Source of the DNA: Catajapyx aquilonaris
Lineage: Eukaryota
Direction of reading: 5' to 3'
Assembly: GCA_000934665.2 (NCBI GenBank)
Contig: KZ538220.1
Span: 1 to 64,000, forward strand
DNA length: 64,000 bases
Part shown: positions 4,216-43,781 of the stretch, in pieces
How positions within the stretch are numbered: position 1 is the first letter of the stretch
Layout: each line of letters opens with the position of its first letter
Program-made: the position numbers and the translations under genes
Notes under the pieces: model-generated
Databases searched by the model: none
What the model was told of the DNA's origin: nothing
Seen by the model: the letters and a program-made list of their open reading frames with translations, nothing else

Positions 4216-4218
4216 TTA

Positions 4219-4760
4219 CTAGCAGGTTTTCGTCGTTGCCCGGGTATGTTATGGTGGTAGGCCTATTTTAAGATTTCAACACAGTTTCAACAATTTCCTG
4301 TTTCTTGTTGTTGTTGTTGTTACGTTTTTTTCAATCGCCCTAACTCACGTTCTGCTGTAGGTAGAGCTTCCAAATTTTGAACACAGATCCCCACCATTGT
4401 GAATTGATTTCCTACCATTTACACTTTCACTTAATTCCTCTCCAAAACGTCGCAAAAAATTTAAACCCACCAAAAAATACGTCTCAATTTTTTTTCTCAA
4501 TAACTATTCGGAATTCGGTTTCTTCATCAAAGGGCCGAAAATGCAGTGGGATGGTGCGGATCTATGTTAAAAATATCGTAGTTCCCACTGCTACAGGATT
4601 GGAGCTGTGATTTTTTAACCTCGTATTTTTCTGTCATTAATTCATTTGTTCATGACGCCATCACCTAGAATTAACGTCAATACTATTTACCACCTCGCCA
4701 TATTGTTATTAGCCGAATGTTATCCTGCCGCTGGTGTGAACGCATTGCACTTATTACAGA
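4219..4760 (-). mobile_element. Second Helitron-like element in tandem with the previous one
   Basis: Minus-strand 3' end CCCGGGCAACGACGAAAACCTGCTAG|T at 4244-4219. The putative 5' end A|TCTGTAATAAG at 4760 is weaker. Confidence 0.45.
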
Positions 4761-4764
4761 TTTA

Positions 4765-5191
4765 CGGTTGAATCCGGATGTAACAGCCTCGGCTATAACA
4801 GACTTGGTTATAAAGGCTGTCCCGGCATGCTTCCATTAGGCACTGTGTATTTTCACTCCTGATATAACAGGCTCATTTTCGGGTATAACAGACCATTTCT
4901 TGGACCCTCGGTGGGAAAATACAGTATTGTTTTCCAGGTATAAAATTTGCAAAAAGGAGACGGCAGAAGGAAATTTCGGATAATTTGGTCCTGCATAATT
5001 TTCGGGTGAACCAATATTGCATTTGTGACAGATTTCATTAATCAGTATGTAGTCTAGTATAGTGCATAGTACAGCCATATTGAAATCAGAAATTTATGTT
5101 TTCGTTGCGTGACGATTCGGCTATAACAGACCTCGGTTATAACATACTTTTTCCGCAGTCTCTTGAAGTTTGTTTTCTCCGGATTCAACTG
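4765..5191. mobile_element. pogo/Tc1-type MITE with TA target
   Basis: TA|CGGTTGAATCCGGA ... TCCGGATTCAACTG|TA, with internal repeated CTCGG(C/T)TATAACA motifs. A second diverged copy lies at about 39070-39432. Confidence 0.75.
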
Positions 5192-5430
5192 TAGGCTACT
5201 CTTAAGCCAGACTAATTAAATCAGACTAACCGTTCGTTGGCTGGTAGCACTCGACTCGTTTTTTTTTACGACTATCTCTGTGAAAATAATTTTAGGGACT
5301 TCTAAGCGACGAAAATCGTCTCCAATGCATTCATAGTGCAGACTGTATAGTGTAGAGCATAAGTTACGTGTAGGCCTACTGTCAAAAAAGAACTGAAATT
5401 AGGGTATATAGTCTGGTGCAAAGAGCTTAA

Positions 5431-5681
5431 TAGTCTGGTGACCCCGGGTAAGCTATCCCGCGGGCAAACACCATGGCAACATATGTAAAAGGATAGCAGA
5501 AAACAACCAGTTACCCCAGGGGGCAACCTACCACGGGTCACCAGACTATATACCTTTGGTCTTTGGTCTGGTGACCCGGGGTAGCTTGACCCCTGGGGTA
5601 ACTGGTTGTTTACTGCTATCCTTTTACATATGCTGCCATGGTGATTGCCCCCGGGATAGCTTACCCGGGGTCACCAGACTA
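5431..5681. repeat. Two inverted copies of a ~118 bp mini-MITE forming a long palindrome
   Basis: Unit 5431-5548 (TAGTCTGGTGACCCCGGG...CGGGTCACCAGACTA) and its reverse complement 5566-5681 are separated by about 17 bp. An extra terminus fragment lies at 5402-5418. Confidence 0.8.
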
Positions 5682-5689
5682 GGGGCCTA

Positions 5690-6475
5690 GATCAAAAACC
5701 TTCCCTTCAGTAAAAAAAAAGAGAAGTAAGACCTCCGCGGCGGAATGAAGGTACTGAAACAAGGCAGGCGCAAGTAAGACCTTCACCAATTGATTTAAAC
5801 TGTACCATAGGTTTTACTCAAGCAATTCTCAGGTACGGTATGAAACGTCTCGTAAAGTGACTGCTGCAAACTATACTCAGAGCGGTAGGTAGGATTTTAT
5901 TATGAAAAGAAAAAAATGGGGGAAAAACTAAACTAACTGACTTGGTCCAATCGGAGAAGACCCTCTAAAATTCACCAATTAACGTTTACATGTGGAAAAA
6001 TTAAACGTCACAGTTAAAATCAGCATCTAAAAGGGGTGCCGATTCTGCATTAATGTTTCATGGCAATAATTCGCACCAATCGCATAGAAATTCAAGGTGC
6101 TTAATATTGAAGTTACTAATTTCATAAAACACTAATATGGAGTGGCTCATGGAAAATTAATGGGTGAAATTTTGGTCGTACTACTATTACTATTAACTAT
6201 AGGTCTGTAGTTACTGCTAACTTAGCAGTACCATTGCACTACACTGGTAGGCCTACTGCAAAGTTAGAAGTAACTAGTAGTACGACAGAAATTCCACAAA
6301 TTTGTTTTCAGAAAGGAGAATTCATGAGTAGTAAATTGGTAATTGCTTGAGTAAGACCTATGGTACAGCTTAAATCAATTGGTGAAGGTCTTACGTGCGC
6401 CTGCCTTGTTTCAGTACCTTCATTCCGCCGCGGAGGTCTTACTTCTTTTTTTTACTGAAGGGAAAGTTTTTGATC
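5690..6475. mobile_element. Non-autonomous element with ~140 bp TIRs
   Basis: 5690-5827 (GATCAAAAACCTTCCCTTCAG...TACTCAAGCAATT) is the near-perfect reverse complement of about 6341-6475. Flanked by TA on both sides. Confidence 0.8.
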
Positions 6476-6545
6476 TATCTATAAAATAATTAGGATGTCT
6501 GTGGGTTTGTTTGTTCGCTATAGAAATCCAGGGAATGCCCCTAAA
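6474..6545 (+). mobile_element. 5' fragment of a Helitron-like family also present at 40233-40690
   Basis: TCTATCTATAAAAT...GTTTGTTTGTTCGCTATAGAAATCCAGGGAATGC aligns by eye with TCTACTATCTACAAAT...GTTTGTTTATTCGCTAAATTCAGGGGAATGC. The 3' extent is unclear. Confidence 0.4.
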
Positions 6546-9500
6546 CCACCTTAAAACTGGCCTTATGGGTCATTGTGTAGGCTAATTATTGAAACCAATG
6601 AGCCAAAGTTTTCATTACCTGTAAAGAGGGTCAACCTGGTGTCAAGCGATCATTAATTGCATCAATTCCTGCCAGAGCCGGTGCTGTTTTACAGGTTGTA
6701 ATGTTAGGTGTCTATTGTTAGAGACAAATTCACTTAGATAAAAATAATAATGCAAGTGACTTTTCACACAATGGAATTCTCTTAGACACTTTTACTAAAT
6801 AATTATTATACATAACGGAAATATTATTATTTTATCAAATACGTGATAGCAGATTCAGCCTGTTAGGCGGAACACACGGAAAGTAAATCGGACCTGGGTG
6901 TATCAAAGTAGGACAGAGGAACATCAGAGAAGAAATCTGTGACATTTTCTGCCTATGGTTGCATCAATCGAAGATTTGATCGCGTGAAATTTTAATAAAA
7001 AATCCACTGACTTTAAAGGAGGGTGATTTATTGCGTAAGTTCGTTCACAATCGTAGATGGAAGATTGTAAGAGTGGAAATATAATTTTCCTCGGCGCTCA
7101 GAAGAACGTTTGACCGACAAGTAATCTGGGAAATTTGCAATTTAACAAGGGCGTAATTTTGAGAATGTTATGCAGATGAATTGCATGCTCACTAAGGGTT
7201 TTTTTTTTCTGTGGAAGTGTGATTTTTCAAGTCCAGCTGTGATTAGAATTTTTACTACTAAGATAAACCAGTTCAGCCTATAAATGAACTTGGGCAACAG
7301 CATTGGCAGAGACCCATAAATTTTTAAAAACAATTAAGCCTCGATCCATGTTAAATATTAGAACAATTTCATAATTACACTCAACAGTACAATTATGCTA
7401 TTGTCTTCCAAATAAAAATGATTGTCCCAAACATTCATAATTAGACCATAACAATATGATTTAAGCTAACATTATTTTAGTGCACAATATCCTGGCATGA
7501 TTTGTCCCATTCCGTCCTCTAAACAAGCCTCACTGTATTCATTTGCGTCGCCCTGTATGTAATTATTCCACCTAAAAACAAACCCCGTCATTGTCCCACT
7601 CAAAATATAAAAATCCGTCCTCAATTATTACAAATGAATGAAAACATGGGACCCATATCAAACCGCATTATACACATCAAGAAAATAATTGTGACAAACG
7701 TCCAAATCCACTGTCATCCTTGTGGTCCAAATTTGACAACTCAAATAATAACCGAGCCCCACCTTTCTCCATCACAGTGCCTACAAAAAGCTTCATTTTG
7801 AGCAGGCCACTTTATCGGAGAGGAACCCAGAAAAAGTTGAGAGGCAACATCAGCAGTGGGCGAAAAAGCGAAAAGAGGAATGAATCGTATAGGAATCCGT
7901 ATAGTATATATAGAGAGAGAACTCTGTGGGCCATATCCTTGGCCGGCCAAATCGCATCTGGCGATTCGATCAACCGGGGCGAACCCCACCCCTTTCGTTT
8001 TCCAGAGATAAATTGGCCGAGGAAGAAAACTTCCTTTCACATCAACCCCCCCCCCCCCCCCACCCCCATCTGCGTCCAATCTGCCCAGAACATACTGTAT
8101 ATACCGGACTTATTGGCCCAGCACCAATAACGTGTCCGAATTATGGCAAACATGTAACTTATCATTGGCTGATCCGCTCGATTTCTCACTTTTTAGGATT
8201 ATTTCGATACCTCCTTTTTAGTACAGGCTTATTAAAAGTGAAGATGAAACTGTCTCTTTGGAGATCTGCAGTTATTGGAAAAGATTTCCATTTCGAACGC
8301 GGCGGGATGTAAATTGAAAATGTCGCTTGCCTATACGTGCCATCACGAGATTTTTCTATTGGGAGATGAGCGGCTTGCCTTGCTTGGAGGCAAGGGATTT
8401 CGCTCAGAATTGATTTGAACGAATTCGCAAAAGTGTACAGTGCAGTAAGCAAGATATACTGTAATACACTGTTTCAAATCAGAAAAAATTACATTGAGCC
8501 TACTGACTGAAAAAAATTATTATGTAGGCCTACCCTATTATTACAGCATAATCCGGAATAAACCCACTGGACTAACCCTTACTCCAGCAGTAAATCATAC
8601 TTTCCCTTGCAACGTGGTCTAAATAATGCCAAAAATTCCGCTTGCTGAAGAATGTCGTAAAATGTGATTCACCGACGGCCTTAAATAACACTGGCACACT
8701 AAATAAAAAATCCGACAAGCTTTAAAGCATTGCATTGGCTTGACTACCACCAAGATTCCTCTTTCTTATACAATTTTTTTTCCTCCCCAGTATCGGGAAG
8801 ACCTCTCTTGTTCCTATATATATATATTGAGTATTGACTTCCAGGATTTAGGAAGGACCACCTGGAAAGATTCGTAGCTTTCCTGTCAAGCATCTAAATT
8901 TTTAATGATTTTCCAGGGTCTTAACATAGAAATTCCATTTGCAGTGGCATCGAAAAGGGCACTGAACTGTCACAAGATAACAACGCTGCATCGTACTAAA
9001 TCGCCTTCGGACTCGATACATTTTTTTTATTTTTAAGTGCAGACTGTAGAACAAATTTTTGCATCGGTTAGTTATTCCCGGACTTACTACTCCAAAATTT
9101 ATCCAGCAGAGGCCAGCACATGCCACGCAAAAATAAACACCGCCAAATTCAAAATCTCTGTACACAAAAGTGGTGAAGATCGATACATTGTCTCTGGCAA
9201 AAATTCCAGAGTCAGCGGTGATTATTCGGTCCCGATTTCTTCTCGGGGCCTTTCCAACATTTTCAGAATCAACTGATGAGAGTGAGCGGGGAATTGGATG
9301 AGTGAAAATCTGATCCTATGTGGAATCCGGTGACTGTCAATAACCTCGGTCTTTCCCCCTCTGCGACGTGCTCTGATTTAATTCCCTTTCTTCGACGAGA
9401 TCGGCTTAAGTGGCGAAAATTCCATAGATGACTATTTGACATTCACGTTTGATCCAATCTGGCAAACTTGACGAAAAGTTTTAAGATCCGTCGCGTTAAT

Positions 9501-12444
9501 ACCGAACAATGTGTGTCTCTTTTTCGCCCAAATGTTAATGAGACTCAATTATCGCACTAACATAGTACTGTGCTCGCCTCTAATTCACTATCACCACAAA
9601 CTCACCTGTGCAAACCATAATCAACACACTAACTTAATTTCAATTTCAAGCAGGGACTGTCTCAGGAGCATTGCACTGAAGTTGACATATCGACCTCATG
9701 CACCTGACCTTTTATGAGAGTACTCGACGCAAACTATTATTGGATATCGGTTGTGTTCATCAGCTTCCAACTCTTTTTAGCATTTCCGTGGTCTGTAATT
9801 GACTATAAATTTATTGAGTGAATTTATGTTTATCATGGGGCAGCCTGCGCGTTGCCAATTATTATTAATTCATAGTTAATACAGCCCATATAAACTGCTA
9901 GTCTGATCGCAATTGACGATAATTAACAGCGGATTTAACGCTCTACGAATTTGCATATTAAATGAAACCAATGTGACAATGGCGCCGGTTGTGGCAAAAA
10001 TACGGAGACCCCCAATGCAATGCAATTAGGCAATCGCGACTTAACAGGAAATTGGATGGTTCTGGTTGGCCAAATCAGTGGGATATTAATAATAGAGGTC
10101 TACCAAAAAGCTGCATGATGCATTTTGCCATTATTAATTATTATTTTAATCATATGTGCAGTGGCGTCCCTCCTGAATTTTATGTCACTTGCATGCGGAC
10201 AGCTGGTCATTCATTACATGAAAATGCTTATCATTGCGTTTGTACTCCACATGGGAAGTTCACAAATTCAAACATGCCTCTTGGCTAACCAGTGGCTGAA
10301 CATTAGCCATGAAATCCTCTACTCTCTACCAGAAACTCACTACTTAATATTTTAATATGACCTGAACAGGGCGAATGACTGCGGGCTAGGAGAGCGATAA
10401 CAATAAGTCGTAATTATATGCGTCCTTGCACACACCCCTACAGTATTTCACACTGCAACAGTTTTCTGCACAATTGTCTGTAAAAAAGGGTACCGTGACT
10501 GACAAGAGTTGTAAATATTTGAAACGGGCTTGTAACGAAGGTGCAACATAAAATGAATACAAACGCTGAGGGCACGGGCGTTGAACAACACACAATACAA
10601 CAAAATAATGTCTCCATTGTAATTACCACATGTTCATTTGAATTATGCACTAGAAATATTATGTTATAGTTGGAGCAATGTAAATGTGAGTCTATGCAAC
10701 CCAATAAATTCCGAATAAACTCGGCAGTTAAAACACCATGCAAATTTCTGTACAGTATGTAGACATTATAATGAATCGAATTTAAAACTCCTTGATCTTA
10801 AAAAACTACGTGCAAAACAACATATTACTTCATCAGCTCTAAAGCACTAACCTTTTTTCCATTATACTCAGCACGCAAGTCTAATTCTCTAGCTGGAAAC
10901 TTTACCTTGGAATACATTGGCCTATATACACTTCCCAATTCTCCCGCAGGAACGATCCCGAAGAAAAAAATCAGCCTTGCGTACTGAATGCATAAAGTGA
11001 ATTGGCAGAGAAAAGTATTAGATGCAAATAAGTTGCTCCTGACAGAGTAGCTGTAGGGAAATTGGACAAATAGTAAAAACCAGCTAGCATATTAAAGTTG
11101 GGAACAAAATAAATTCTACCTCTGTGGGTATATCAAGGCTAATTCAAGTTCCTTTTACCAAATAATTTATTTCTCAGGGTTGGAAACATAAGACGTCACA
11201 ATCACCACAAGAAATAGATTTATTATCATTGCTATAGAGTAAAATTAATGTCCTCTTGTAACGACTAATGGTCGTTGGGAACATTGCGGACGGAATTTAT
11301 CATGGTTTCTGTTCATTACGGTGATGTTGGTCTGATCGTGAGAAAAATGAGGAAAAAATACTTGTTACCCCCAAAAATTAATTTAAAATGTTCGGGTCAA
11401 TATTCCGTCAGCTCTAATACAATATTTTTTCCCAAATCCCTGGAATCCCTTGGGAATATTATTCCACAGGCGGTTAATCAATTAATCGCCGATGCAGTGT
11501 GTTATACGTGTCGAATATGGTGGAATTTAACCTCGGTGTTCAGCATCGATGGGAAAGTATGGGAAACACGTGGCATTAAGCGCATTACCAGATCAAAACT
11601 GTATATCGTGCTATGCGAGAAATCGCGTGTAAAGACGTGACCAACCGCGATAATACCATTTCGACTGCAGTGTCACAAATTAATACTTCACGATGTGAGT
11701 TGCTATTGATTCCTATACCAATATTACTTGTCATATTTCTTTTACTTGCGATCGAATTGATCCAATCAAAGAAGGAATACTTCACCAACTGCGATAAGAA
11801 ATACTTCGATTGAAAGCCCGATAAAAGTTCCGCATTCGACATACAGTATTTATAAACTGCTATAGTTAATCGACAGAAAAATTAATTTATTAATTACAAC
11901 AAAGCATAATTAATTTTTAAGGGTGCAGTAGCCTTTGGAACAACCTTGATATAACTGTAGAACCAGGAAAAATCTAGCTGATGCATAATTGCATATTTGA
12001 TTATAAACGTCATTAAAAAGTGCACTGTTGCATAATCCAAAATAATGTGCTCACACACATCGTTACCAAACACACATGCTGCAGCACTTCGTTGCCAACC
12101 ATTTTTTTCTCTCTACTCATTTCCAGCCCCCAGATCGATAGGAAGGTCGGAATTAAGCGAGCTTTTGTGCTCGGGTTTACAGTCTTTTCAACAGCAGTTC
12201 TCTACCCCCCAGTTCTTTTCTTCGAGTGGTTCCCGTACACTGTAAAAATCGACATTCAATCATCGACATTCAATCTGATAATAAATGACGACAGATATCA
12301 ATGACAAAAATTACACTCTGACTATTTATACTCCATTTGTCTCAATATGGCTTCGTTCAAAATGGTATTTTAAAAATTTGGTTGACAAGGAACCTGGAAA
12401 TAATTTGCGTGGGCGTAAAGGGTCTGGGGCGTGATACGTACCAC

Positions 12445-26600: not shown

Positions 26601-27880
26601 ACCGTTATCCAGTAGCCATCTTGAATCAATTTGAAAGTCCGGCACCCACAGCAAATTGTGTGGGCGGCTATGACACTCCCAGGAACGAATTGCGGGAAAT
26701 TGCAACATTTCGCAAATAAGTGTAAAATGAGGCTTTGCTGGGACAGCAAGTTCATAGGCAGATTATATTCAACAAATATTCAACAAACAGTTTTAGAATT
26801 CTGATTCCGGGTGTCAAAATAGGTTCCACTGGCAACTTCCAGTACCGGTACTTCTGGTTTCCCGGATTCACTTTATCTGCCAAGGTCAGGTATACCGGCT
26901 GGTAACCATATGATTTAGATATTAGTTTCCTTAAATAACTACCAAAAGCCCTCAATTCTGTCAGGTACAAGCAACCACCCACACCCTGTTTCTCCCGGAA
27001 GTGTCATGGCCGGCCCGTGTGACCAAAGATTTTTCCAGCTTCAGGTTGATGGGGCTAGCGGCATTGAGTGAGGCCGTCATTTTCTCTGTCATTGCACTGG
27101 TGTCACTCCCCAGATCCTAACACAGTCAAGGAGTGTGTTTGTATACACACAGGTCTGCGACCCCCTAAACATGTTTCCATAAATGTGGGACTCCTAAGCA
27201 CAATCCAGAGCACATCTGAAAACATGCTCTGGATCATTGTGCTTAGGAACTGTAAAGCAACATTAGCAGCTAATCGGCAACTCACCACCTCCTTNNNNNN
27301 NNNNNNNNCCCTCCAGCAAAATGAAGGCCCATGCCACATACCTCGCAAGAAAGTCAAGCACTTCGTAGATTTATCATCAGCAGCAGCACCACCACCACCA
27401 CAATCCGAGATTTTCTCCCTAATTTGCATTAATACAACTGACCTGAATGAGAAACTTTTTGCAGTGATGGCCAGTGAGTTTACCAGGATTTTTTTTTCCT
27501 CTATTGTAATTGCACTAATGCAATTAAAGGCTACCATGTATCTACTTGCCGGCAATAAAGCATGATGCTTCCAGTTTGAACCCGAAATTTTTGCTAATGG
27601 ATCTCACAGCGATAGCATTTTTAGGGAACTGGACAGTCTTGTGAGACTACTCTGTGTTAAATTTATGCTGCCACCCTGCACAAGTAAGCTGCGACTGCAA
27701 TTTGCAGTATGATCAAGTTTTGTTTGTCCAGCCCACTGAGTTATTTGAACTGAACTCATAGCACTTGACCTTACTGCAAATTGAAACCACAGCTTGCTTG
27801 TGTGGGGCGGCAGAACAAGCACACTAATTTCACACACACATTTACTCTCACACTCTTACAACCACAACAAAAAGTATACA

Positions 27881-30800
27881 TTAAAATGCATATCGGGTTC
27901 GAACGTCCTCCAGCTTCTTTGAAACCTCATTTGGAGTGCGGTCAAGATCCTCCGCAATGCTCTTCTGCTTTGCAGGTTCCATCGAGTTGAACTGCTCACA
28001 TAAATCACCATCAATAACATTCTGCAAATAAGGCAAATAAGTGACATCCATTGATACAAACATGCAGCTCTACCAAAATTCCTTTAACTCACCTTGACAG
28101 GGTAATAGTAGGAGCGGAAAGAGAGATGGTCTCTCCCACAGAGTGGTGGGTTCTCCGACCTCATGTGCATCTCAAGATGCTGGAAGAAGTCATGGTCTTC
28201 ATGTGAGGTAAATGGGACCAGGATCCCAACAGTCCCTGACAGCGTGGTGTACACCAAGCTCTCATTTCCTCCTGGAATCAGGGTCACCTTCTGTAGAGTG
28301 GTTGGGGTCTCTCCACAATGGAAGTTGGACACTATGTCCACCTTCTGAGAAGCCCCATTCAGGAGGCCACGGTCCCACAGAGATTTGTTTCCAGTCGGAT
28401 CCTCATCTACCTCATCCGATATTCCTGATGGAAGCCTTAGCTGTCATGAAAAGCACAAAAAAAAACAAATTTCATAAATATTGAACATTAATGATTTCAT
28501 ATGAGTTGAATGCACGTCTCATGAATATTGCTGTAAATCTTGCATCAGATTTGAGTAAACGGGTTTAAAAAAAGTATAATCACACGGATTCATTTGAAGC
28601 GCAGGTATTGTAGTGGTCATCATTTGCAAGGACAGAAATAAAACAGCAAGAACTCCACTTGTGTTCTTCAACTCCCAACCTTATTAAAATCCATCTGCCA
28701 GTACTGAAACTCACCACAGCAATGTTGCCAAACTTGTCAGCTGCAGCAACAGTGTCGTAGTCCAGTACTGTGGAATGGGTAATCCATCTGGGATTGGTGT
28801 CATCTGCAAACACTATCAGCTGGTTCTCATGTCTCTTGTATCGAACGTAGTGCATACTCTCCTGCACGTCCGACACATAGACACGATGGCCCATGCCTTG
28901 GATGTTGACTATGGTGTTTGGGATATGCTGTGGAGAACAAACTGCATGATTATTTGTTCCCACTTCAATCATATAACATTAAAATGCATGCCAAGAGGTC
29001 AGCACTGCAGGACACATAATTTCAACAGCATAGTTCTGCCAAAGTGTTCATCACTCCTCTCGCTTTGTTATGTGATACAGCCTAATTGTCATCAGTTATC
29101 ATGCAATTTTCCAGCTCATTGCACCAACCTTATTCTCGCATTTCCTCAGCAACTTCTTCTTCCCATAGTCATACAGCCTGAGAAGCCTTCCCACCCCAAT
29201 AAGTACCCTTCCCTGGAAGGCACAAATTGCCTGTGGAACTTCATCCATGGGCGTCTTGTGAACCAGGTCCAGCTGCTGTCCCTCTGCTGCCACTCGGTAG
29301 GTGTAAACTGCTCCTCCTGCAACTATCTTTGGGTTCAACTGGTAATCCTTGGCGATCCCCACCAGAACAAACTGCTGGTCTGCTGGCTGGTTGGCAAATC
29401 TCACAAGAGCAATGCTGCCAACATAAATTGTTTCGAAATCAGTTCCAACATAACCAGACACCCCAACCTAAATTTTCCAAATAATTAGCTTGCATCAGAT
29501 TATTTTGGGTAATATAATAATCACAGGCACTCAGTGGAAGCGCGGATAAACTTTTCATCATTTGCAAGCAGTTATATTTTGGAGGTACAAATTTCCAATT
29601 AAGGAACTACACAGCAACAAAAAAATTAGTAAATACAGAGCTTCTGGCACTACATTCTAAATAATTCAAGCCCACGTATCAACAGGGGAAACTCAAGCTT
29701 ATAACATTCAATTACGGATGCATACCTGACTGCAGCCTCATTCTGTTCCAGTCGGATCTGTTGCAAAGTCTTCCCTTCTACAGGATCCATAACCTGAACA
29801 ACTGAGGCCCACATCCCAGAGCCTGCTTTGGGAGCACCAAATGTGCTCTCAGGAAGGTTTTCATTGAGAAAGGCCTCCGCCATCTCCCTAGCAAGCTCCT
29901 GCTCTTCCTCGCCAGCTGCCTCTTTCATCTCCTGCAAAATTCATTGTCTTATATTAGATTAAATCAAAATGTGTTATCAAGAACTAATATACGAGCATAA
30001 GCTGCACAGGCATCAGATATTTGGTTGTTCTAGTCACAGGCACTCATTTGAAGCGCGGTTTTGTCATCATTTGCAAGGTACAGCTATGCCTCAGCTTACA
30101 GTGTGAATGCCTATCAATATTTATTTTATAAGTAGACTGCTTACCTCAGCCATCTGCATTCTCCTACTGCGCTTAGTGTCCTCTGTGTATGCATTATGAT
30201 CAGTGAGGATGAGGTACAGGTTGGCTGACTCGGGATGCACCACAAACTTCCTCGGTGTGTACTCCAATGGAAAGCTGACTTGGTTGAACACAGCTCCTAA
30301 CTTCTCCAGAGCCAAGATTCGCAAGGTGTTAGTTGAAATGGCTACAATACCCTCTGGACACTGTTCTGATGAGAAACCAGATGCAAACTCCAAAGTCTCA
30401 TAGCTCAATGGTGTCAGGTGGAATCTGCTCTGGTAATAGTAGCTCAACCACGAACGACTTGACATGGCCAGAACGCTTTCATTCCCCTGCATCTTCACAC
30501 GAAATAGCTTCACAGGGCGTGAACCCAAGTACCTGGTGCGCGTGTCAGACAAGTCGCCTGAAACTGGATCCAAGACAGTACGTAGCAACACTCCATTTTG
30601 AAGCCCTATGTTTAAGTAGAGGGAGCCGCCACCAGTGCTTGCTTCATCTGATGACCCTTCACTGCCACCCATTTCAGCAATACATAGTGATTCAGCTGCA
30701 GCAGGCAATGCTTGCATACTGAGTGGCGTGAGGCAATCAAGCGGATCCAACGATATGATACGGACAGTATTGTCTGCAAGGCCAACAGCTAGAAATCGAG

Positions 30801-33800
30801 ACCGCTGCTCTCCCAGAGGGACATTAGCCAAAGCCATGCACACCACATCAGCAGTCATCTCTTTCCTCTCAGTATACTCATTCAGCTGGCCTGTGGGATC
30901 CATCTCGAAGTACACCAACTCCCCACCAGTCAGGGCAATCACAACCTGCCGTTGGTTGACTGCACATTTTAAAATTGTCTTCTTGCCAGGAGCCTTCCAC
31001 TCATTCACACGCTTATCAGCACGGATGTGACGAATGCCATCTGGGTAAACCTGTATTATCCCAGACAGAATTAGTGTGAGTGTCAAACAACCACCCCACA
31101 ATTTCCCTATTAATAAATTGACAGACCTGAACTAGAGCTTCTTCTCCCAGGGATGAGCATGACAATGTTGGTGTAGTGCCCAAAAATCCAGAGTCAGTCA
31201 CTTCTTCCACAGTCTCTCCAATGGACAGAACCAAGGTGGCATTGACGAAAGACACGATGATGTAAGCATCAAACTCATCTGCCAAAAGTTGGAAATTCAA
31301 AGATGATGGCATTAAACATTGCTGAAAATTCTGGGTCTTTGAAATGTGGAAAACTATTTCACTTATGAACCTTAAGGGTTACCAATTGATCAACCAGTAC
31401 ATTTCAACTTGAAATTAATCAAACTTTTACAATGTCACAAGCTCTGCTTTTAAGTTTTAAAATGCAATCAAATTTCTGGTTTTAGAGAATGCGGACAACA
31501 CTTAGCCTGAAATCAGAAATAAACGTACGGAGAATATATTTTCAAAGCATTAATCTATGACTTATACCATTTATATTACTACATTACTGACCTCATGTTA
31601 CGATCATCACACTGGACATGGCCTGGAAAGGAAATCTCTTTTGTGGTTTTACTGTAGTCATGGCCAATTTTTGCTTAAGCTTTTAAAAAATATTAGCATT
31701 CATACTCTAATAGATCAAGAATTCAGATACTATATGTATCAAGGACACCTCATGACATCTATTAATCTGCAATGCATCCCAAGCACTTTTAAGATTGTCC
31801 AGTTACTTAATTGCATTGAAATTGTTTCGGTTTTGACTCCTGTAAGTCACTCTCAGGTATTGAATTTTGAGAAATGCCACCAATTTCTTTGGGTCCAACG
31901 AAAATGAAATGTAGGACAGTAAGCCACGTACTAATAGTGAGTCACACATTCACAGCAGTTATGGCTAGATCATTTGTTTCTGGACAATCCATTTCACCTA
32001 TCAACACTACCAGGTAGCAACAGAGCTACTGTACAAATCCAACCTGTTCTCTAAAAAATACATCTGAGAAGGCCATTAAATAGGCTCTTACCATGACATG
32101 CATTCCAATAACAGTCCTGAACCTCAAAACTGACCATTCAATTATTCACCAATCTGGATTATGACTGACCTAATCTGATCAAGCTTCAATCACAGACACT
32201 AATTTTCATGTGTAAGCGAAACAATCACATACAGTGCAGATCACGAAGGTGTAACAAGGTGTCCTACACCACAACTTTAGCCTTTACTTTGATTAGTTTT
32301 CATGTAATTCAGGCCATGCACCATTATGAGCAAATAAATTGGTAGGTGGTAAGAGTGACATTCAATAAGAGAAATTCTTCTAAATTAGTTTAGCAACAAT
32401 AAATTCTAACATCTCTGGGAGGAAGAATATATATTTCCTGATTTATTTGAAAAGATGCAGCGCTCTCTAATCTCCAGTAATCAATAGTCTAATATTGAGA
32501 TGTGATCAGAGGTCATTTCAATTTCAGGGTACATCAAGAGTCTAACACGTACTATACCATCATCATTTCACAATCCAAAAATTTCAATTTACCAAATTCT
32601 CCTACTGCGTTTATCATGGTGCTCATTCAACTATACATGTGTGATGCAATTGATATTTCACAATCAATCGATCAATTTATTTAACCTCCTTGTATCAACA
32701 CAAGGAGGGACCCAACTCTTACATGATACCTCTAGCATCTTTCTAACAATTTATTTAAGGGACACTCCACTCAAAATACAAGTTGGTGTCTAAAAATCAG
32801 GCAAAAAATCCTGATTCCGAGAATGTGATCAGTTTCTCTCTGAGCCGAACGGTAGTCCGCGAAATAAATCTCAAAGTAGGCCGTCTGCAAACCCCCGGCC
32901 ACAGACCCGCTGCCCCTCCAGTCGCCCACACCTCCCCCCGGCCACCTGGCAGCTGCCTGAGGAAGTTGGATAACCGAATCTCTATCCACCACCCGTCACC
33001 ATCCGACCCCGAACTGCATTCCAAACTCGCGCTGCTGGATTCGGGTATGCAACTTCCTCAGGCAGCCGCCAGGTGGCGAGTACCCAACTTCCCCCGGTGG
33101 CCAAGGGTGAGGTGGGCGGCTCCACGCTCGATCAGAAGTCGAATTTATTCAGACTTTCGTCTCTTCCCCTGTCATTACCGTTCGCCTCAGAGATAAACGG
33201 ATCGCATTCTCGGAATCAGGATTCCTTGCCTGATTTTTAGAGGCCAACTTGTATTTTGAGTGGAGTGTCCCTTTAACAATTGCAGGTTGCAGTGGGGAGC
33301 AAGAGATAGTAAGTTAAGGTATTGTCATTACGAAATATTGTCGTGCCATTTAGCCACATGTCAAATAAAAATAAATTACATTCCATTGTTCTTCGTTCCA
33401 CATTGATATTTCACAATTCAATTGAATTGAACTTTTCACACCCTGCCTTATTTCCAATTGAGTGCCAGAAACAAGCGAAAAAGGACCTGTCAATATCGAA
33501 AATTGCAGATACACAAACAAGCTGCCATCAAAAAGCTATATTTTTAAATTGCTTTGGACAACTTTCTAGTAATAGTTGCAAACACCATCAGGTCAATCAA
33601 TATATTGGAGATGCAAGTCAACTCATTTTACCTTCCACCTTTGCCCATAACGGTTCTTAAATTCAACTGATTCAGAAATTTTCATACGTCGAAACCATCT
33701 TGTATTCCACATCTTAACCACACTAACCATAAGTGGCCATGGAACCATCCAATTTTTGAAAGCAACTACTTTCCAGCCACTTTGGTCCCCATTTAAGGGT

Positions 33801-36800
33801 AAAATCCATTCCTTAACCCCCCATGCCCCGTAAAACGGTCAGAAAATCAGTCTCATAAAGTAGAATATCTCAGTACAGGGTATGAATGGGAGCGAAATTT
33901 TACTAGGACACTCACCAAATATTCTAGAATCCTATAGATTCAACATATACCGGCAGAATCCATTTTTGCTGACTTATATGCATATAACTAACATGCTGGC
34001 ACAACAAAGGACTCCCGGACAATTTTTTAGAAATATAACGTCCCATCGGAATTTATTGCAAATTTTTTTTAAATTAATTTGGTATATTATCCCATCAATT
34101 GCATTAAAAATATTTCGTATTTACGAATAAAGTCTAATTTTAATAAATGCACAAACCATTGCTTACACTCAAGAGACGGAACTGGGACGATACTGCGCAG
34201 GCCGGGTGGATGGAGGTCAGGAGGGGGCGAAGGGTAGGGAACAGGTTTTCCTATTGAAAGGGTATGCCCTTGATGTCTGCAGGGGGTGGGGATGGACTGG
34301 TTTTGGGTTCTGGCTGCCCACGGGTAGAGAAGTGTTACAGTTCAATCTATGAACCCAGGCTGCTTCCACCTTGTTACCATCCGACTTGATGTACCGTATT
34401 ACCTCTCATAAAGCGGCATGCTGGTGTAGTTGAGGTCAACCAGTTTTTAGAAATGCATGATCTAGTGGCTATACCAGCATGGTATGCCGGTATAAAGCGA
34501 GGTTTACACATAAGTTACATTATCCTTTCCGATCTTGACATCTGCCCGAAAATTGAAAAGGCACCTTTTCCTAATAGGGTACCCGTATCATATATTGTGT
34601 TCAATTGCAGTGTCTGGCAATAATCTCCATTGAAGCAGTATGTTAGAGCAGGGGGGGCCCCTGTCAAAGCAGGCTGGTTACACACACTATATTTTTTATA
34701 TGCATTGTGCAACAGAACTTGCATATTCTCACAGCCTGTACACTCGCCCCTTTTCATGGTAACATTATTTTAGTACGGTACCAGAAGTATTCCAGAAAAT
34801 TTGGCAAGGATCAAAATTACCGAAATCTACCTTGGTTATTGCGGCATGCCAGCCACTCCAGGGTCGACCGGCATGCTGGTCGACCTCGTTTTATACCGGC
34901 ACTCTGCTTTATGAGAGATAATACTGTAATCCTTAGAACTTAGATGGTCTTGCAGCAGAAAGCAAACAGAGCTCCAATACCCAGCAAGAGACACTGGACC
35001 ATGCAACCAAATAAACTGGACTGCTAAAATTACTCACCATCGGCCCTCTTCTTCACTGTCCACACAGCATTTGGATTACCAGGAAGTTCTGAGACGGCCA
35101 TCTCAGACACTTCCAATCCATGACGCAAGACTCGGAGAGATGAACGAGGGCCCCTCCCACATAACATGTACAGCTGAGGTGTATCTTCATTTGCTAAAAA
35201 AGTACAAAATATTATAACAATGCACTAGATCATTGATAAATCCAAACTCACCCAAATCAGCAACTTGACAAGCAAGTATGGGAGAGAGTGACTCCATTTC
35301 ATCCACAAGAACAAGGTTCCTCAGAGGGCGTGGCCCGAAGAAAAAAGTGTCTCCCTCTTCCAGTGGCATGGCTGAACTAAACTCTGGTTCGTCATCGTCA
35401 TCCCCCAAATGGGCAATCTGATACAGGTAACTGCAAAAGCAAAATTGTCATGGTGTGAAGTACTTTCTGCATAGAACTGGCAGAAGTATCCTCCACTGTC
35501 AAATTAATTTAAAATTGTGGATATTTATGAGAAAGCGAGTAGACTGCAGCGAACAGAAATAATCCACACCCTAATAATCGAGAGTACAGTGTACACCATT
35601 ATCACTAATTACACCACTTGCATGGAACTGACTGCATGCCAACATTAGCAAAACGCATCCAGCACAAGTCTGTAGTTAAGTCATAAAGTCAGTCATGAAC
35701 CAACCTCAAAAAACAACGTTGATTGAGATTCATGTTGTAATAATCAACTTACTGGTTGCCGAACTCTGATGCAACAAACAGAAAGCCAGTCTTCAGGACA
35801 CACATTGAAGTTGCCACAGGTACAGTGTCGAAATACTTCAACTTGATTTCCGTGACCATGTCCTCATCAGTCTCCAATGTAATTTTAAATATGTCTCCTT
35901 GCTCAGTTTGGGTCAGGAAGAAAAACATTGATTTGGTCTTGTGTGTGGCTGAGCAAACAAATATCATGCCTCGCTCAGGATCATCCAGATCATTCTGAAA
36001 ATGATTTTCAAAAACATTAGCAGCTGCACTTCATCAAATAAGAGGTGGGGAAATGATCAAGTTTTCTAACATGTCATCACATGAGACGACTTTGGGATGT
36101 GATCAGAAGCAACATTTGATTTCAGGGTGCATCAAGAGTCTAACACGTACTATGCCATCATCACTTCACAATCCCTCATCTGTTTGCAAAAATGTTATCT
36201 CGCCTAATTAACTCACCCTTCTCCTTGGTATGGGGCACCTAATGTCATGCTGATCACCCAGGTTCTTGTATGTGATGTAGTTTTCAGAACAAATAAGGAC
36301 CCCACTAGGTCCATCATTCCCACCTGGGACAGATATCAAGAAATTGGCATGCTCATCCAATGGTTCATTGTACTTCCTCACAACATGATTCAGTCCAAGA
36401 TCCAACTCATAGAAAGTGAGGGTCTGTTGAGTCTTCTGGGCAGCTTCACCGGTGGGGTCAGTGTCAGCATCCTAGAAAAATTTCCTCATTACTTCTCTAC
36501 GCCACAAAGCAAATGATGGTTAGCAACAAAAGAAAGCGCCTTCATCAGTGAGTCGATCCGAAGTCTCATAGACATCAACGGTTCGGGTTTGGTCATCACG
36601 AAAGGATTCAAACAGTATCCAAGAGCAACTGAGAATAAATTCAACTAACCTCATAGTCAATCTCAAGGCAGGCAAACATGGGGTTTTCAAACCCAACATC
36701 TACACCGACCATGTGGTAGACCAATGTGTTGCTCTTGTGCGCTTCCAGAGGAGATGAAATGGTCAGCCTGGCCTGCGCATCTCGATTGAGGATGTACACC

Positions 36801-38135
36801 AACTTCTGCTTCTCAACTGCACCTGTAATAACAAGTCTCATTAGATACTTGTACATGTTTCAAAACCAAATGATTGCTTACCAATCATAACTGCTCTTCC
36901 CTTCGGATCAATGGCCAAATACTGCCCAGGAACAATTCTCCTGCAGCCACTCTTTCCGAACGTCTCCTGATGGACCTTCTCAAATACATTTTTGGCAGCA
37001 TTGTACTCCAGGATCACAATTCGGCCTGAGTCAGACCCAACAACAATGTAATCTGCAATCAGATTGGAAATCATCAGTGGGATTTTTAAAGTATACTGTA
37101 GTGCAGCTGTACTTCATAAATTGAACATATCATGTTATCACTTATATAGGCCTTTTAGCAAAACCAGGTCCAAAAATCACACGTGATAAGAGCAACATGA
37201 GGCACATGTTTGTAATAAAAGGACATACCAAGTGACCTTGGAGAGTGGTGATAACTACCATTGTGCTGGATTCATACTTTTTTTAGAATAATTAGCATAT
37301 CTGGTTGGGCACCTAATTCATTCATGAACATATAGAATCTTGCAGTGGCAACAGTTTTAAAGCCAGCAGACTGACGGGGAACATAGATGAATTTTTAAAC
37401 CAGCGCAAACCTGCATATTTTTGCAACAGTTCTGATCTGCCGGGAGTCTAAAATGCAACACTGGGTGTCATTTACGAAACTAGTGAAACCATTTTTTAAA
37501 AATCCCAGCAAGATCTGCCCTGGAGCCACCAGACGTGGACAGCATGAGATAATAAGAAAAGCGTGGTCACTACCACTTTTAAAAATCACTCCGGAGACAG
37601 TCCGCCATAGGGATGATTCACTTTTGGCACCTGGTGGGGAAAGGTCAGGTCCAGGTCCCTCCTCGTTCCAAAAAAATAATTTCAATGAGATCTGCCCCGG
37701 GGCCAGGCTAACAGATGTGAACAAATAGACCCCACTGACTGTGGGCAAATATAGGAGATTCCCGCGGGATGTTTGCATGACGCCATTTTCATGGCAGGCC
37801 TTGGCAGTTCGAGGCACAGAACTGGTCAATTTGCACGAACTGTGTTGCACTCATTGAAAAATTCATCTCTAGTTGACAAACCCTACCCTACAACCCGTGG
37901 GCAACACGGTGGCAGAGTGGTTAGCACCACAGCCTTCCAAGGTCCCGAGTTCGATCCCCGGGTCGCACAGAGGATACTTATGTGGAAAGCGTTTCAATGG
38001 GCTCTCTCCGTGTTCGCAGGGGTTTTCTCTGGGTTCTCCCATTTCCTCTCGCGATCAAAATCCATCACACCGCAGGCAATGATTAAAGTCGAATATTTAA
38101 AAGACGATACCCTAAGAGGCCCATCACGGGGTATC

Positions 38136-38180
<45 letters not shown>

Positions 38181-38429
38181 CCCTACACTACAACCAGACT
38201 TACCCTTGGTTCCTCCAGTGAGCCTGAATGCCATGAGCGAACGTATGATCCCGAAGACCTCAACGGTGTAGAGCACCAGCACCTTCCCAGTGTTAGGATC
38301 CGGCCTGAGCAGCTCCAGGATCTTCCCCCTGGAGACCACAACCTCCTGCAGCTTGGTCCCGGAAAAGTTCCCATGGACGGAGTGGGTGATCCCCGTCGCC
38401 CGCTGCAGGGTCAGATTGTACAGGTGCAT
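27881..38429 (-). CDS. SF3B3: Splicing factor 3B subunit 3 (SAP130), 1217 aa
   Basis: Coding exons 38429-38204, 37052-36882, 36822-36650, 36471-36217, 35994-35753, 35430-35252, 35193-35038, 31278-31127, 31050-30145, 29931-29726, 29414-29129, 28927-28715, 28440-28093, 28021-27881. All introns are GT-AG and the total is 3654 nt. Starts [13 protein letters not shown] and ends [12 protein letters not shown]. Confidence 0.98.
28539..28630 (-). ncRNA. Box C/D snoRNA, paralog a of a triplicated family (SF3B3 coding intron 12)
   Basis: CTTGCA stem, C box ATGATGA, guide TACCTGCGCTTCA, D' ATGA, C' GTGATT, D CTGA, closing TGCAAG. About 98 nt from the 3' splice site. Confidence 0.8.
28994..29060 (-). 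ncRNA. SNORD96: Box C/D snoRNA guiding 5.8S rRNA Gm75 (SNORD96 family), intron 11
   Basis: AGAGG stem, C box GTGATGA, guide ATGTGTCCTGCAGT complementary to 5.8S ACUGCAGGACACAU, D box CTGA, CCTCT. The D+5 rule lands on the G of UGCAGG. 66 nt from the 3' splice site. Confidence 0.88.
29488..29569 (-). ncRNA. Box C/D snoRNA, paralog b of the triplicated family (intron 10)
   Basis: GCTTGCA/TGCAAGC stem, C box ATGATGA, guide GTTTATCCGCGCTTC, D' CTGA, C' GTGATT, D CTGA. 73 nt from the 3' splice site. Confidence 0.85.
30010..30075 (-). ncRNA. Box C/D snoRNA, paralog c of the triplicated family (intron 9)
   Basis: C box ATGATGA, guide CCGCGCTTCA, D' ATGA, C' GTGACT, D CTGA, short GCA/TGC stem. 78 nt from the 3' splice site. 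Confidence 0.75.
32501..32572 (-). ncRNA. SNORD104: Box C/D snoRNA of the SNORD104/snR58 family, copy in intron 7
   Basis: TGTGA/TCACA stem, C box ATGATGA, guide GTACGTGTTAGACTC, D' TTGA, D CTGA. The guide pairs with LSU GAGUCUAACA and D'+5 is the C equivalent to yeast Cm663. Confidence 0.8.
32759..33272. mobile_element. Palindromic (foldback) MITE with TTAA target, Kolobok-like
   Basis: TTAA|GGGACACTCCACTCAAAATACAAGTTGG ... CCAACTTGTATTTTGAGTGGAGTGTCCCT|TTAA. About 95 bp outer inverted arms plus an inner inverted pair GCCACCTGGCAGCTGCCTGAGGAAGTTG / CAACTTCCTCAGGCAGCCGCCAGGTGGC. Confidence 0.85.
34394..34926. mobile_element. pogo/Tigger-type MITE with TA target in SF3B3 intron 7
   Basis: TA|CCGTATTACCTCTCATAAAGC ... 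GCTTTATGAGAGATAATACTG|TA, with internal inverted TGCCGGTATAAA(G)CGAGGT motifs. Confidence 0.7.
36098..36170 (-). ncRNA. SNORD104: Box C/D snoRNA of the SNORD104/snR58 family, copy in intron 4
   Basis: C box GTGATGA, identical guide GTACGTGTTAGACTC, D' TTGA, D CTGA, extended GGGATTGTGA/TCACATCCC stem. About 103 nt from the 3' splice site. Confidence 0.85.
36539..36605 (-). ncRNA. Box C/D snoRNA, unassigned family (intron 3)
   Basis: CCTT stem, C box GTGATGA, CCAAACCCGAACCG, D' TTGA, C' ATGAGA, CTTCGGATCGACTCA, D CTGA, AAGG. 67 nt from the 3' splice site. Confidence 0.8.
37896..38180 (+). mobile_element. Full-length tRNA-derived SINE (V-SINE-like core) with (ATT)n tail and 15-bp TSD
   Basis: A box TGGCAGAGTGG, B box AGTTCGATCC, core CTCTCCGTGTTCGCAGGGGTTTTCTCTGGGTTCTCCCATTTCCTC and (ATT)14 tail. 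TSD CCCTAC(C/A)CTACAACC at 37881-37895 and 38181-38195. Confidence 0.9.
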
Positions 38430-41234: not shown

Positions 41235-43781
41235 ATGTTTCCGTTCTCAGGGCGGTCCGGCCCAGGGGCTGCCCTGCTCCTCCTGCCCCTACTGACCTCC
41301 CTGGTGCTACCAGTGGCAGAGGCCGGGTCGTTCAGCGGGAGGTACGGGGACTCCTTCGACGAGGAGCTGCTCCTGAAGCCACTGCAGAGCGGGCACCTCT
41401 TCGCTCACTTCCACTTCACCACCCGGTGGGACGCAGACGCACACGACGCTGGGGACGCCCGTGAGTTGGGGGGGGGGGGGGGGANNNNNNNNNNNNNNNN
41501 NNNNNNNNNNNNNNNNNTTGGGGGTGGTTGCTGCTGTGGCACTGAAAAGAGTCATGTCAAAGGTCGATGCAGATAGCCTGTGCTATCAATGATGGGAGAG
41601 AGAAAGAAAAAAAAGATAACAAGACAGATAAAATTATGTGTAGCAAAGCTGCAGCAGTTCAAATAATTCAGATGTATGTATGTTTCCCTCATTAAATTGG
41701 AGCTTTTGTTACAGTTGACCACTTTCATCTGTTCCCGCGGACGTTGGGGGAAGTGGCGGAGCATTTCAAGGTTCGTGAACTTCACTTGAGCCTGACTCAA
41801 GGGTTGTGGAGGCATCAGAAGTGGGGGTACCCAGTTGTTGATGCGGCCCCTGGAGCTGAGTTGTGGGTCTGGTTCAAGAAGGGGGCTAAAAAGTATGTAG
41901 GGTTGGGCTCGGCTCATTTTATGAGTTGTCACTAGTGAAAACGTTGTCATGATTTTTGTAGTGTCACGGAAACGTGGAATGACTTGACAAATGCCTTGTC
42001 CGGGCTTTTTTGTGCATCTTTAAACTTCATCGATGCAGCCAATAGTGTGTCACCTGAGCTGTCCTTTCGACCTTCTGGGGTCACTGGATCCCCATCAGAT
42101 GAGGATGCATCTCTAGTCAGATATGCCACCCTTCCTCGAGAAACTGTGTGCACTGAAAATCTAACCCCATGGAAGAAGCTTTTGCCATGTGACACCAGAG
42201 TAAGTGATTGACGTTACCATTAAAGTTGCTAATTATTATCGACGCACTTTTCATTTTACAGAGAGGATTGGCGACATTGCTGAATGCTCGTCACATATAC
42301 ACTGCCAACTACCACTCATTGGGTGTCCATTTAAGGCCAATATGTAGGGTGAGTCACTTGTTAATGGTATTTTAGTTGAATCAGTGGTTTGACATTTCTT
42401 TGTTGCTGGCAGGATCGCAAGTGCTTAGAATCCAGCCTTGAATTGACACAGACAGTGTCACTGGTGTTTGACATCTTGGCTTACAACCAAGGAAATCGTG
42501 ATTGGTCAACTAGGAAGGTGTTTGGATCTGCACTGCCCAGTGCATGCCCTTTGGCCCAATCGAGCAAGATTTTTGTCACCACCATCACAGATGGGGTAAG
42601 TTACAATACATTTAACAACGTTAAACCATCTCGTTAGCACCTTGTCACACCTTTCTCTCATTCCAGACAACCCATCCATTCACCCTGAACCCTCCTCCGA
42701 TGGAGACCATAACCTCTCATCGTGGCGGAACCCGCAATGAGTATGCCTCATACGACGTGGCATCCTTGTTGTCCCAAGGAGGGATGCTGAATGTTGCTGC
42801 TTCCTACTCCCCACCTTCCACCCATGTGCATGGACTACTCCCACTGCCTGTCCTTACTGCCAGCAGCTTCGTCTCAGGATCAGGGCTGTGGGGTGGACGC
42901 CTGGTAGTTGACATTGGAAACAATTACAGGCAGAGAAGCATCAGGGTTGCTGTGCTGCAAGTCCTACCGTGGTTTCTGAGGACATACCTGCATACTCTCA
43001 GTGTCAAAACCAGAGACAGGGATAACCCACCAGGTACGTGCATTGACCTGTTTGATTTTATAAGCATAACCTGGCTTCTCACAGTTCTAGTTCGCTATGG
43101 TCCATCACTGGACCGCTTGCGACCCACCCGGCTGGAGCTGGTCCTGGATCTTCCTCCACAGTCATACACCAGGGTGAGCCTTGACTTTCACCGGGGGTTC
43201 CTGAAGTGGCTTGAGTATCCACCTGATGCAAACCATGGGTTTTATGTCCCACCTGCTGTTGTGTCAGCTGAGTTGCCAGGGGCCAGAAATTTCACTGGGC
43301 TCCCACAAGATGGCAGTACCATTGCTGAATGGTGAGCCTTTGTGGTCTTTGAATTGACTTATAGTGATTTTTCAAAAACAGGCTAACGCTGACAAGGGGC
43401 ACAATTTTTCCACAGTTTCAATGCATCTCGCAGCTCCTACTTTGTCCGCCTTCGCACTGAGCCGTTGTTGGTGTCGTTACCCACCCCTGACTTCAGCATG
43501 CCCTACAATGTCATCTGCCTCACTTGCACTGTCGTTGCTCTTGCGTTTGGTCCCCTGCACAACATCACAACAAAGAGGTGAGTAAGCACTTTTATAAACA
43601 CGAGAATGGGAACTACCTTTTTTCATTTTGCGTTGGCAGCTTGGTCTTGCGAGATGCATCTCGCAAGCGCAATGTGGTAGTTCAAGCCACCACATGGATC
43701 AAGCAAAGGTTTTTGGGAAAGAAGGATGAGAAAGCGGACGTAACAGCAGAAAAAAAGGAGCAGGAGAAAAAGCAACTGTAA
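41235..43781 (+). CDS. PIGT: GPI transamidase component PIG-T, about 609 aa
   Basis: Exons 41235-41460, 41715-41892, 41962-42199, 42262-42348, 42413-42595, 42667-43033, 43085-43331, 43416-43577, 43640-43781 (1830 nt). Signal peptide, [43 protein letters not shown] and [21 protein letters not shown] at 43789. Confidence 0.95.

Follow-up and report, generated by a model that had tools for sequence, protein, structure and literature searches.

The closest described counterparts of the locus treated here are the SF3B3 genes of flies and vertebrates, which carry small nucleolar RNAs (snoRNAs) in their introns. According to Table S6 of Sklias et al., 2024 (PMC11014333), Drosophila melanogaster Sf3b3 (FBgn0035162) hosts six expressed box C/D snoRNAs, which the first-author column of that table credits to Accardo et al., 2004 and Huang et al., 2005. 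They are listed as CD26a and CD26b (Me28S-C788a/b), which serve Cm813 of the 28S ribosomal RNA (rRNA), CD34 (Me5.8S-G74), which serves 5.8S Gm74, CD32a and CD32b (Me28S-G3113a/b) for Gm3184, the SNORD58 site, and CD43 (Me28S-A771) for Am796/799 (PMC11014333). Human SNORD111A and SNORD111B are described from different SF3B3 introns and guide 28S Gm3923 (PMC6124571), and the chicken snoRNA GGgCD58 is reported in two copies, in SF3B3 introns 3 and 6 (PMC2653536). Table S4 of the fly study lists the Gm3923 site for human and Xenopus only (PMC11014333). Here we describe SF3B3 of Catajapyx aquilonaris, in a stretch of 64,000 nucleotides (nt) that we call the window (assembly GCA_000934665.2, contig KZ538220.1, positions 1 to 64,000). 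Seven introns of this gene each hold one box C/D cassette on the sense strand. We consider it probable that the gene is a multi-snoRNA host with one box C/D snoRNA in each of these seven introns, and that these snoRNAs have the functions predicted below.

SF3B3 and the cassettes in its introns

The identity of the host is clear from protein comparison. A single exon matched SF3B3 of many animals, with E-values down to 1e-251, and tblastn with a termite SF3B3 as query returned 14 coding blocks from 38429 to 27884, around which the exon borders were set by fitting junctions. Among the 120 proteins retrieved with the full-length product, SF3B3 of insects and other arthropods matched best, at 84-86% identity. 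The gene model is as follows.

38429..27881, minus strand: SF3B3 coding region (host gene), 14 coding exons, 13 GT-AG introns, intact product of 1217 amino acids

In contigs from sequencing run X5, exons 14, 13 and 12 are spliced together, as are exons 10 and 9, precisely at the fitted borders, so that at least introns 9, 12 and 13 are seen removed; the kind of this run is not on record, and its contigs behave like complementary DNA and cannot show small RNAs. Across the exons that are joined in X5, the window and the DNA run X1 are collinear.

To find the cassettes, both strands of the window (128 kb) were scanned for RUGAUGA followed 40-140 nt on by CUGA, with a terminal stem of at least 4 base pairs (bp). 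This strict scan gave eight matches in total, seven on the minus strand, all of them within SF3B3, and one on the plus strand. Six are wholly intronic and are named here after their introns (i3, i4, i7, i10, i11 and i12). The remaining minus-strand match, at 35968-36087, starts in intron 4 and extends into exon 5, and was discarded as false. The sense strand of the introns (6,895 nt) thus holds six strict matches, whereas 300 dinucleotide-preserving shuffles averaged 0.18, peaked at 3 and so never reached six. The antisense strand of the same introns gave no strict match, and in introns 1, 5 and 7 a relaxed scan that allowed one mismatch in box C and required a stem of at least 5 bp found nothing beyond i7. 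The seven cassettes are these.

36604-36539, minus strand: i3, 66 nt, intron 3; C box GUGAUGA, D box CUGA, 5-bp terminal stem
36170-36098, minus strand: i4, 73 nt, intron 4; SNORD104-type D' guide, D' box UUGA
32572-32501, minus strand: i7, 72 nt, intron 7; paralogue of i4, SNORD104-type guide
30083-30002, minus strand: i9, intron 9; C box AUGAUGA, D' box AUGA, D box CUGA, split stem; weakest member of family B
29569-29488, minus strand: i10, 82 nt, intron 10; 7-bp stem, D' box CUGA; best member of family B
29062-28992, minus strand: i11, 71 nt, intron 11; 7-bp stem, SNORD96-type D guide
28630-28539, minus strand: i12, 92 nt, intron 12; 6-bp stem, D' box AUGA; family B

Exact C (RUGAUGA) and D (CUGA) boxes are present in all seven, and the terminal stem is 5-7 bp long in six; i9 was missed by the strict scan because its box-adjacent stem has only 3 bp, with 6 bp more beyond an internal loop. 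The internal D' boxes are degenerate, reading UUGA in i4 and i7 and AUGA in i9 and i12. The introns that carry cassettes are 178 (intron 3), 222 (intron 4), 3759 (intron 7), 213 (intron 9), 311 (intron 10), 201 (intron 11) and 274 nt long (intron 12). Those without a cassette are four short introns (59, 58, 76 and 71 nt), intron 1 (1151 nt) and intron 5 (322 nt), and seven of the nine introns of at least 178 nt carry one cassette each. The cassettes end upstream of the 3' splice site by 67 nt (i3), 103 nt (i4), 70-78 nt (i9), 73 nt (i10), 64 nt (i11), 98 nt (i12) and 1222 nt (i7). All seven lie on the sense strand, one per intron, six with the favourable acceptor spacing of 64-103 nt, and no A-rich tails were seen adjoining them. 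By orientation, location in spliced introns, number per intron and spacing, the set belongs to the splicing-dependent type of intron-encoded snoRNA.

Alignment sorts the seven cassettes into four families: i4 with i7, i9 with i10 and i12 (family B), and the singletons i3 and i11. The near-identity of i4 and i7 stops a few bases outside the RNA, where the flanks lengthen the terminal stem; further out their sequences are unrelated. The members of family B have their 5' half in common (stem, box C, D' guide core, D' and C' boxes) and differ in the sequence and length of their 3' halves. These results agree closely with a preliminary description of this DNA, made from the letters alone, which had named SF3B3 as the host, placed exactly one sense-strand cassette in each of coding introns 3, 4, 7, 9, 10, 11 and 12, put six of them near the favourable distance from the acceptor, left the very short introns empty, and counted four families of which two had expanded between introns.

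From established snoRNA biology, we propose that the snoRNAs would be made from spliced-out SF3B3 introns and be co-transcribed with SF3B3. The core proteins of the small nucleolar ribonucleoprotein (snoRNP), which for the box C/D class are fibrillarin, Nop56, Nop58 and Snu13, would assemble on the C/D kink-turn during splicing, after which the lariat would be debranched and exonucleases would trim the intron to the protected snoRNP. The spacing of 64-103 nt in six of the seven would suit such assembly, being the known favourable intron position, reportedly described by Hirose and Steitz in 2001. The i7 cassette, far from the acceptor in a repeat-rich intron of 3.8 kb, probably relies on its extended terminal stem.

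Several other features lie in and around the gene. Parts of introns 7 and 1 (32441-33511, 34226-34939 and 37796-38152) have a summed contig depth of 7,000-47,000 in the DNA run, compared with about 35-40 elsewhere, with many variant letters and joints; interspersed repeats fill both long introns. Intron 7 also contains, at 32942-33077 (minus strand), a long GC-rich hairpin or inverted repeat that matches mir-550 weakly (32.3 bits, gathering score 81); since word depths in this stretch of the DNA run are in the thousands, we take it to be most likely a repeat present in many copies or a miniature inverted-repeat transposable element, and not a microRNA. A simple triplet repeat at 38130-38189, in intron 1 near exon 1, gives a run of tyrosines in one plus-strand frame. 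Just past the SF3B3 stop codon (27881), a near-perfect hairpin of about 120 nt at 27680-27801 (plus strand) matches plant and animal microRNA models weakly (MIR7125, 28.7 bits, gathering score 100) and probably represents an inverted-repeat element that lies within or close to the 3' untranslated region. Both the mir-550 and the MIR7125 match thus fall on long inverted repeats and stand apart from the snoRNA finding. The only strict box C/D match outside SF3B3, at 22-124 on the plus strand (103 nt, 5-bp stem), may be due to chance. Short runs of N at 27295-27308, 41485-41517 and 60847-60859 mark assembly gaps.

Guide elements and predicted rRNA targets

Rfam gave no match at its gathering thresholds anywhere in the window, and the Rfam comparison that the preliminary description had put forward as a check left all seven cassettes below the gathering score. 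The matches to named families in permissive searches were the following.

i4: SNORD104 (RF00289), 20.3 bits, gathering score 40
i7: SNORD104 (RF00289), 19.2 bits, gathering score 40
i10: snoZ196, 32.5 bits, gathering score 55
i10: SNORD24, 27.9 bits, gathering score 41
i10: snoU36a (RF01302), 26.5 bits, gathering score 45
i10: SNORD100, 25.2 bits, gathering score 58
i11: SNORD96 (RF00055), 16.8 bits, gathering score 43, E 0.56 in a 91-nt search

No eukaryotic snoRNA family matched i3 at E<=10 over the 86 nt searched, and its matches to the archaeal snoRNA sR18 (9.7 bits) and to RydC (11.5 bits) are meaningless. A SNORA15 match at 35887-35990 was rejected as it lies in exon 5, and the likeness of the i10 D guide to SNORD100 was set aside, no 18S duplex being found for it. 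By score, none of the seven belongs to a curated Rfam family; it is the guide elements that match. The SNORD104-type and SNORD96-type guides that the preliminary description had recognised are indeed present in this sense, by guide match and not by Rfam score.

Guide complementarity was scored on reference ribosomal DNA (rDNA). The metagenome contig L002 is a complete rDNA unit, with 18S at 2620-4912, 5.8S at 5307-5465 and 28S at 6056-10333; its 18S is long (2293 nt), its 5.8S deviates from the animal type at the Gm74/75 site, and it is clearly non-arthropod. The motif of the SNORD104 site occurred at 113 loci in the metagenome, mostly not rDNA, with L002 and L026 usable as full or partial units, and a 27-nt 28S pattern led to one further eukaryotic rDNA contig, L229. 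A 14-nt 5.8S motif had 115 chance matches in the genome contigs, none of them with 5.8S context. Altogether 24 box-adjacent candidate guides (the stretches before NTGA) were scored on L002, with 30 shuffles each. Only three beat all their shuffles, the D' guides of i4 (score 36, null maximum 29), i7 (36, null maximum 28) and i10 (34, null maximum 28), and all three fall in conserved rRNA cores. The guide of i11 and the D' guide of i12 did not stand out in this comparison on L002. For the D guides of i4, i7, i9, i10 and i12 and for both guides of i3, L002 offered no target that scored above shuffles, and L229 no convincing one. Targets were read by the position-5 rule, which is said to come from Kiss-Laszlo et al. 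in 1996. On the reference rRNAs, as distinct from the species' own, an antisense element of at least 10 nt that adjoins the D or D' box and has its target opposite position 5 is found in i4, i7, i10, i11, i12 and i9 (10 bp in the last) and is missing from i3.

The i4 and i7 cassettes have in common with the SNORD104 consensus a 12-nt guide core at the same spacing to D', which gives the same target cytidine. Their D' guide forms a duplex of 15-17 bp on L002, with position 5 on C907 of the 28S, within ..GGAGTC... This cytidine has an A at -17 and at -14, as in the published trio Cm813, Am796 and Am799, and Table S4 of PMC11014333 equates fly Cm813 with human Cm1327 (SNORD104) and yeast Cm663. 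We therefore predict that i4 and i7 are guides for the SNORD104 site (human Cm1327, fly Cm813, yeast Cm663), where they would direct 2'-O-methylation of the 28S cytidine.

Similarly, the D guide of i11 finds its best duplex in the whole of locus L055, which has an animal-type 5.8S, at 13 pairs, position 5 facing the 5.8S guanosine that corresponds by homology to G74 of the L002 5.8S. The spacing from CUGCA to box D is the same as in the SNORD96 consensus, and fly 5.8S Gm74 corresponds to human Gm75, listed with SNORD96A/B (PMC11014333, Table S4). From its guide, i11 is likely to serve the SNORD96 site and would direct methylation of 5.8S Gm75 (fly Gm74). A 10-nt match to 28S beside the C box of i11 is out of register and within chance expectation, and was rejected as a target. 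For the rDNA of Catajapyx itself we predict the sequences ..UGAAGCGCGGGUAAAC.. in 28S and ..CUGCAGGACACAU.. in 5.8S.

Family B and the competing explanations

The D' guide of i10 is complementary to ..AAGCGCGGGTAAAC.. in domain IV of 28S and is directed at the adenosine of ..GAAGCGCGGG..; its duplex is 14 bp long on L002 and 15 bp long on L229. On L229, whose 28S reads TG before AAGCG, i10, i12 and i9 pair over 15, 13 and 10 bp, all in the canonical register and at the same A, and on L002 the D' guide of i12 pairs over 11 bp at the same adenosine as i10. To fix the register, seven reference 28S sequences were tested at successive offsets against 15 bases listed as modified in some species (yeast 2197-2337). 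A single offset accommodates all 15, the next best 8 of 15. At this offset, and with the D' box where the three copies have it, the second of the two adenosines in AAGCG stands opposite position 5 of family B, at +13 from the SNORD36C site; simple offset makes this yeast 2233 and fly 2611. Table S4 of PMC11014333 has no row for methylation of this adenosine in fly, human, yeast, Arabidopsis, Xenopus or Dictyostelium. The same table has neighbours at +16, a Gm in Arabidopsis (Gm2237, with a plant U36a-type RNA), and at +20, a Gm in human and Xenopus (SNORD87) (PMC11014333).

Family B might instead consist of true orthologues of SNORD36C/snR47 that guide the universal 28S Am (fly Am2598), our register being wrong. 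The conserved Am is only 13 nt away, snoU36a is the best family-specific Rfam match of i10, and the plant snoU36a and SNORD36 clan has the same 14-nt antisense stretch as i10, complementary to the same 28S segment. However, the landmark fit of 15 out of 15, with at most 8 out of 15 elsewhere, places the SNORD36C/snR47 adenosine (yeast 2220, fly 2598, human 3703) 12 nt upstream of the paired stretch of family B and outside the duplex. In addition, the spacing of the D' box is identical in the three copies (CUGA in i10, AUGA in i9 and i12), the snoU36a clan scores of 26.5 and 16.6 stay below the gathering score of 45, and the fly site is attributed to CD18 in RpL7A (PMC11014333). Given that the SNORD36C-site adenosine lies outside the duplex, and given the D' register, family B is not a SNORD36C orthologue on our reading, and we regard the orthology as quite improbable; as guides for that adenosine (human Am3703, fly Am2598, yeast Am2220) the three cassettes lack a fitting duplex. 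The D' box of family B lies 3 nt further on than that of snoU36a, and the predicted target is for this reason the A at +13 and neither the G at +16 nor the SNORD36C-site A. In 28S, the adenosine that the D' guide of i9, i10 and i12 would then methylate is the one 13 nt 3' of the SNORD36C/snR47 site.

We describe family B as a family of its own, outside the named ones, with a predicted target that is absent from the published list. Its guide core has been kept in three paralogues while their 3' halves diverged, which suggests that the guide is under selection. Tentatively, and with the odds somewhat against so specific a proposal, family B could be a lineage-specific guide for a new 2'-O-methyl on the 28S adenosine in the conserved ..GAAGCGCGGGUAAAC.., and, with i3 taken into account, SF3B3 a long-lived snoRNA 'nursery' whose cargo is partly conserved across arthropods (the SNORD104 and SNORD96 types), the rest turning over through duplication between introns and guide retargeting. 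The singleton i3 is an orphan, with no family and no rRNA target found. It has a recognisable C' box (UGAUGU) and ideal acceptor spacing, and no D' guide of useful length; if made, it would be an orphan guide.

The reading of SF3B3 as a host of seven snoRNAs is carried by the gene structure, by the motifs and their excess over chance, by the paralogy and by the complementarity of the guides to reference rRNAs. A number of points weigh against it. The reference rDNAs used for scoring the targets (L002, L055 and L229) are eukaryotic sequences of metagenomic or contaminant origin and not the rRNA of the species, and the shuffle controls cover L002 only. On L002 the i11 guide does not beat its shuffles, which we attribute to the difference of the L002 5.8S at the site, and the D' guide of i12 scores 27 against a null maximum of 30. 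The long D guide of i3 finds nothing in register on L002 or L229. The predicted target of family B is not a known methylated position, so that the guide could be non-functional, and i9, with its split stem, its AUGA D' box and a guide of only 10 bp, may be decaying. No cassette reaches an Rfam gathering score, the best partial scores being 32.5, 26.5, 20.3, 19.2 and 16.8 bits against 40-55, and it is from sequence that we infer expression as discrete RNAs of 65-90 nt, their processing and the methylation itself.

A rival explanation is that only part of the set is functional. Decaying paralogues would then include i9 above all, possibly also i3 and a single copy from among the duplicates, which would keep their boxes but no longer form stable snoRNPs or guide methylation. 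We take this seriously, and would give it a sizeable chance that nevertheless falls short of even. The 3 bp next to the boxes of i9, its D' box and its short guide fit this explanation, as do the lack of a family or target for i3 and the D guides of the paralogues, which differ from one another and find no rRNA target above shuffles. Moreover, Sklias et al., 2024 report annotated fly C/D snoRNAs that are not expressed (PMC11014333). Nevertheless, the C and D boxes are exact and a terminal stem is present in all seven cassettes, the favourable acceptor spacing is kept in six, and the guide core of family B is intact in all three copies. A more radical explanation would hold that the cassettes are chance matches to box motifs, or recent retroposed snoRNA copies unrelated to splicing. 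The box motifs are indeed short and none of the seven passes the Rfam thresholds, but this explanation has to contend with a count that none of the 300 shuffles attained, with a shared sense orientation, a one-per-intron layout and a fixed acceptor distance, with flanks in which no A-rich tails were seen, and with two guides whose sites are also served by snoRNAs of fly Sf3b3. We hold it to be very improbable, and keep to SF3B3 as a multi-snoRNA host.

Comparison with known SF3B3 cargo

The role of SF3B3 as a host of several snoRNAs is already on record, and the arrangement in Catajapyx, although real, is largely ordinary. Modestly new are the three-copy family with its unlisted predicted target and the orphan i3. 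The host role may be inherited, or SF3B3, as a housekeeping gene with strong expression, may have been recruited more than once.

The preliminary description was right that human SF3B3 hosts SNORD111 copies (PMC6124571) and that human SNORD96 has a different host, SNORD96A being described from GNB2L1 (PMC7812721). Like vertebrate SF3B3, the Catajapyx gene is a host with paralogous C/D snoRNAs in different introns, two in the vertebrate case. SNORD111 itself gave no Rfam match at E<=10 among the cassettes and no in-register duplex at the region of L002 equivalent to Gm3923. The i4 and i7 cassettes differ from SNORD104 and yeast snR58 in reading UUGA and not CUGA at D' and in scoring below the gathering threshold; the human host of SNORD104 is presumably a gene other than SF3B3. 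The i11 cassette lies in SF3B3 as its fly counterpart does, unlike human SNORD96 in GNB2L1.

From such differences the preliminary description had concluded that the host role is old and the cargo exchanged. As a comparison of vertebrates with arthropods this is a fair summary, and one that can be read from published tables. However, two guides for the SNORD104 site and one for 5.8S Gm74 are also present in fly Sf3b3, so that for these families the cargo has been conserved within arthropods and not exchanged.

The fly gene is accordingly the nearest relative of the locus in organisation: it is the same host, it carries several intronic C/D snoRNAs, two of them for the SNORD104 site and one for 5.8S Gm74, and it too contains duplications within the host. 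It differs in having six snoRNAs where Catajapyx has seven, and guides for the SNORD58 site (Gm3184) or for Am796/799 were not found among the Catajapyx cassettes, which comprise the three-copy family and the orphan instead. Default Rfam thresholds would annotate none of the seven, which illustrates the under-calling of C/D snoRNAs in arthropods. With Catajapyx, a gene that hosts snoRNAs in flies and vertebrates alike has a second arthropod example, which offers a concrete case in which the gain, duplication and retargeting of intronic snoRNAs can be studied inside one conserved host, together with one testable prediction, a new rRNA methylation site for family B. What the two arthropods have in common is that guides for the SNORD104 site and for 5.8S Gm74/75 travel with SF3B3, while the remaining cargo differs, being guides of the SNORD58 type and the SNORD126/18 type in the fruit fly and the three-copy family and an orphan in Catajapyx.

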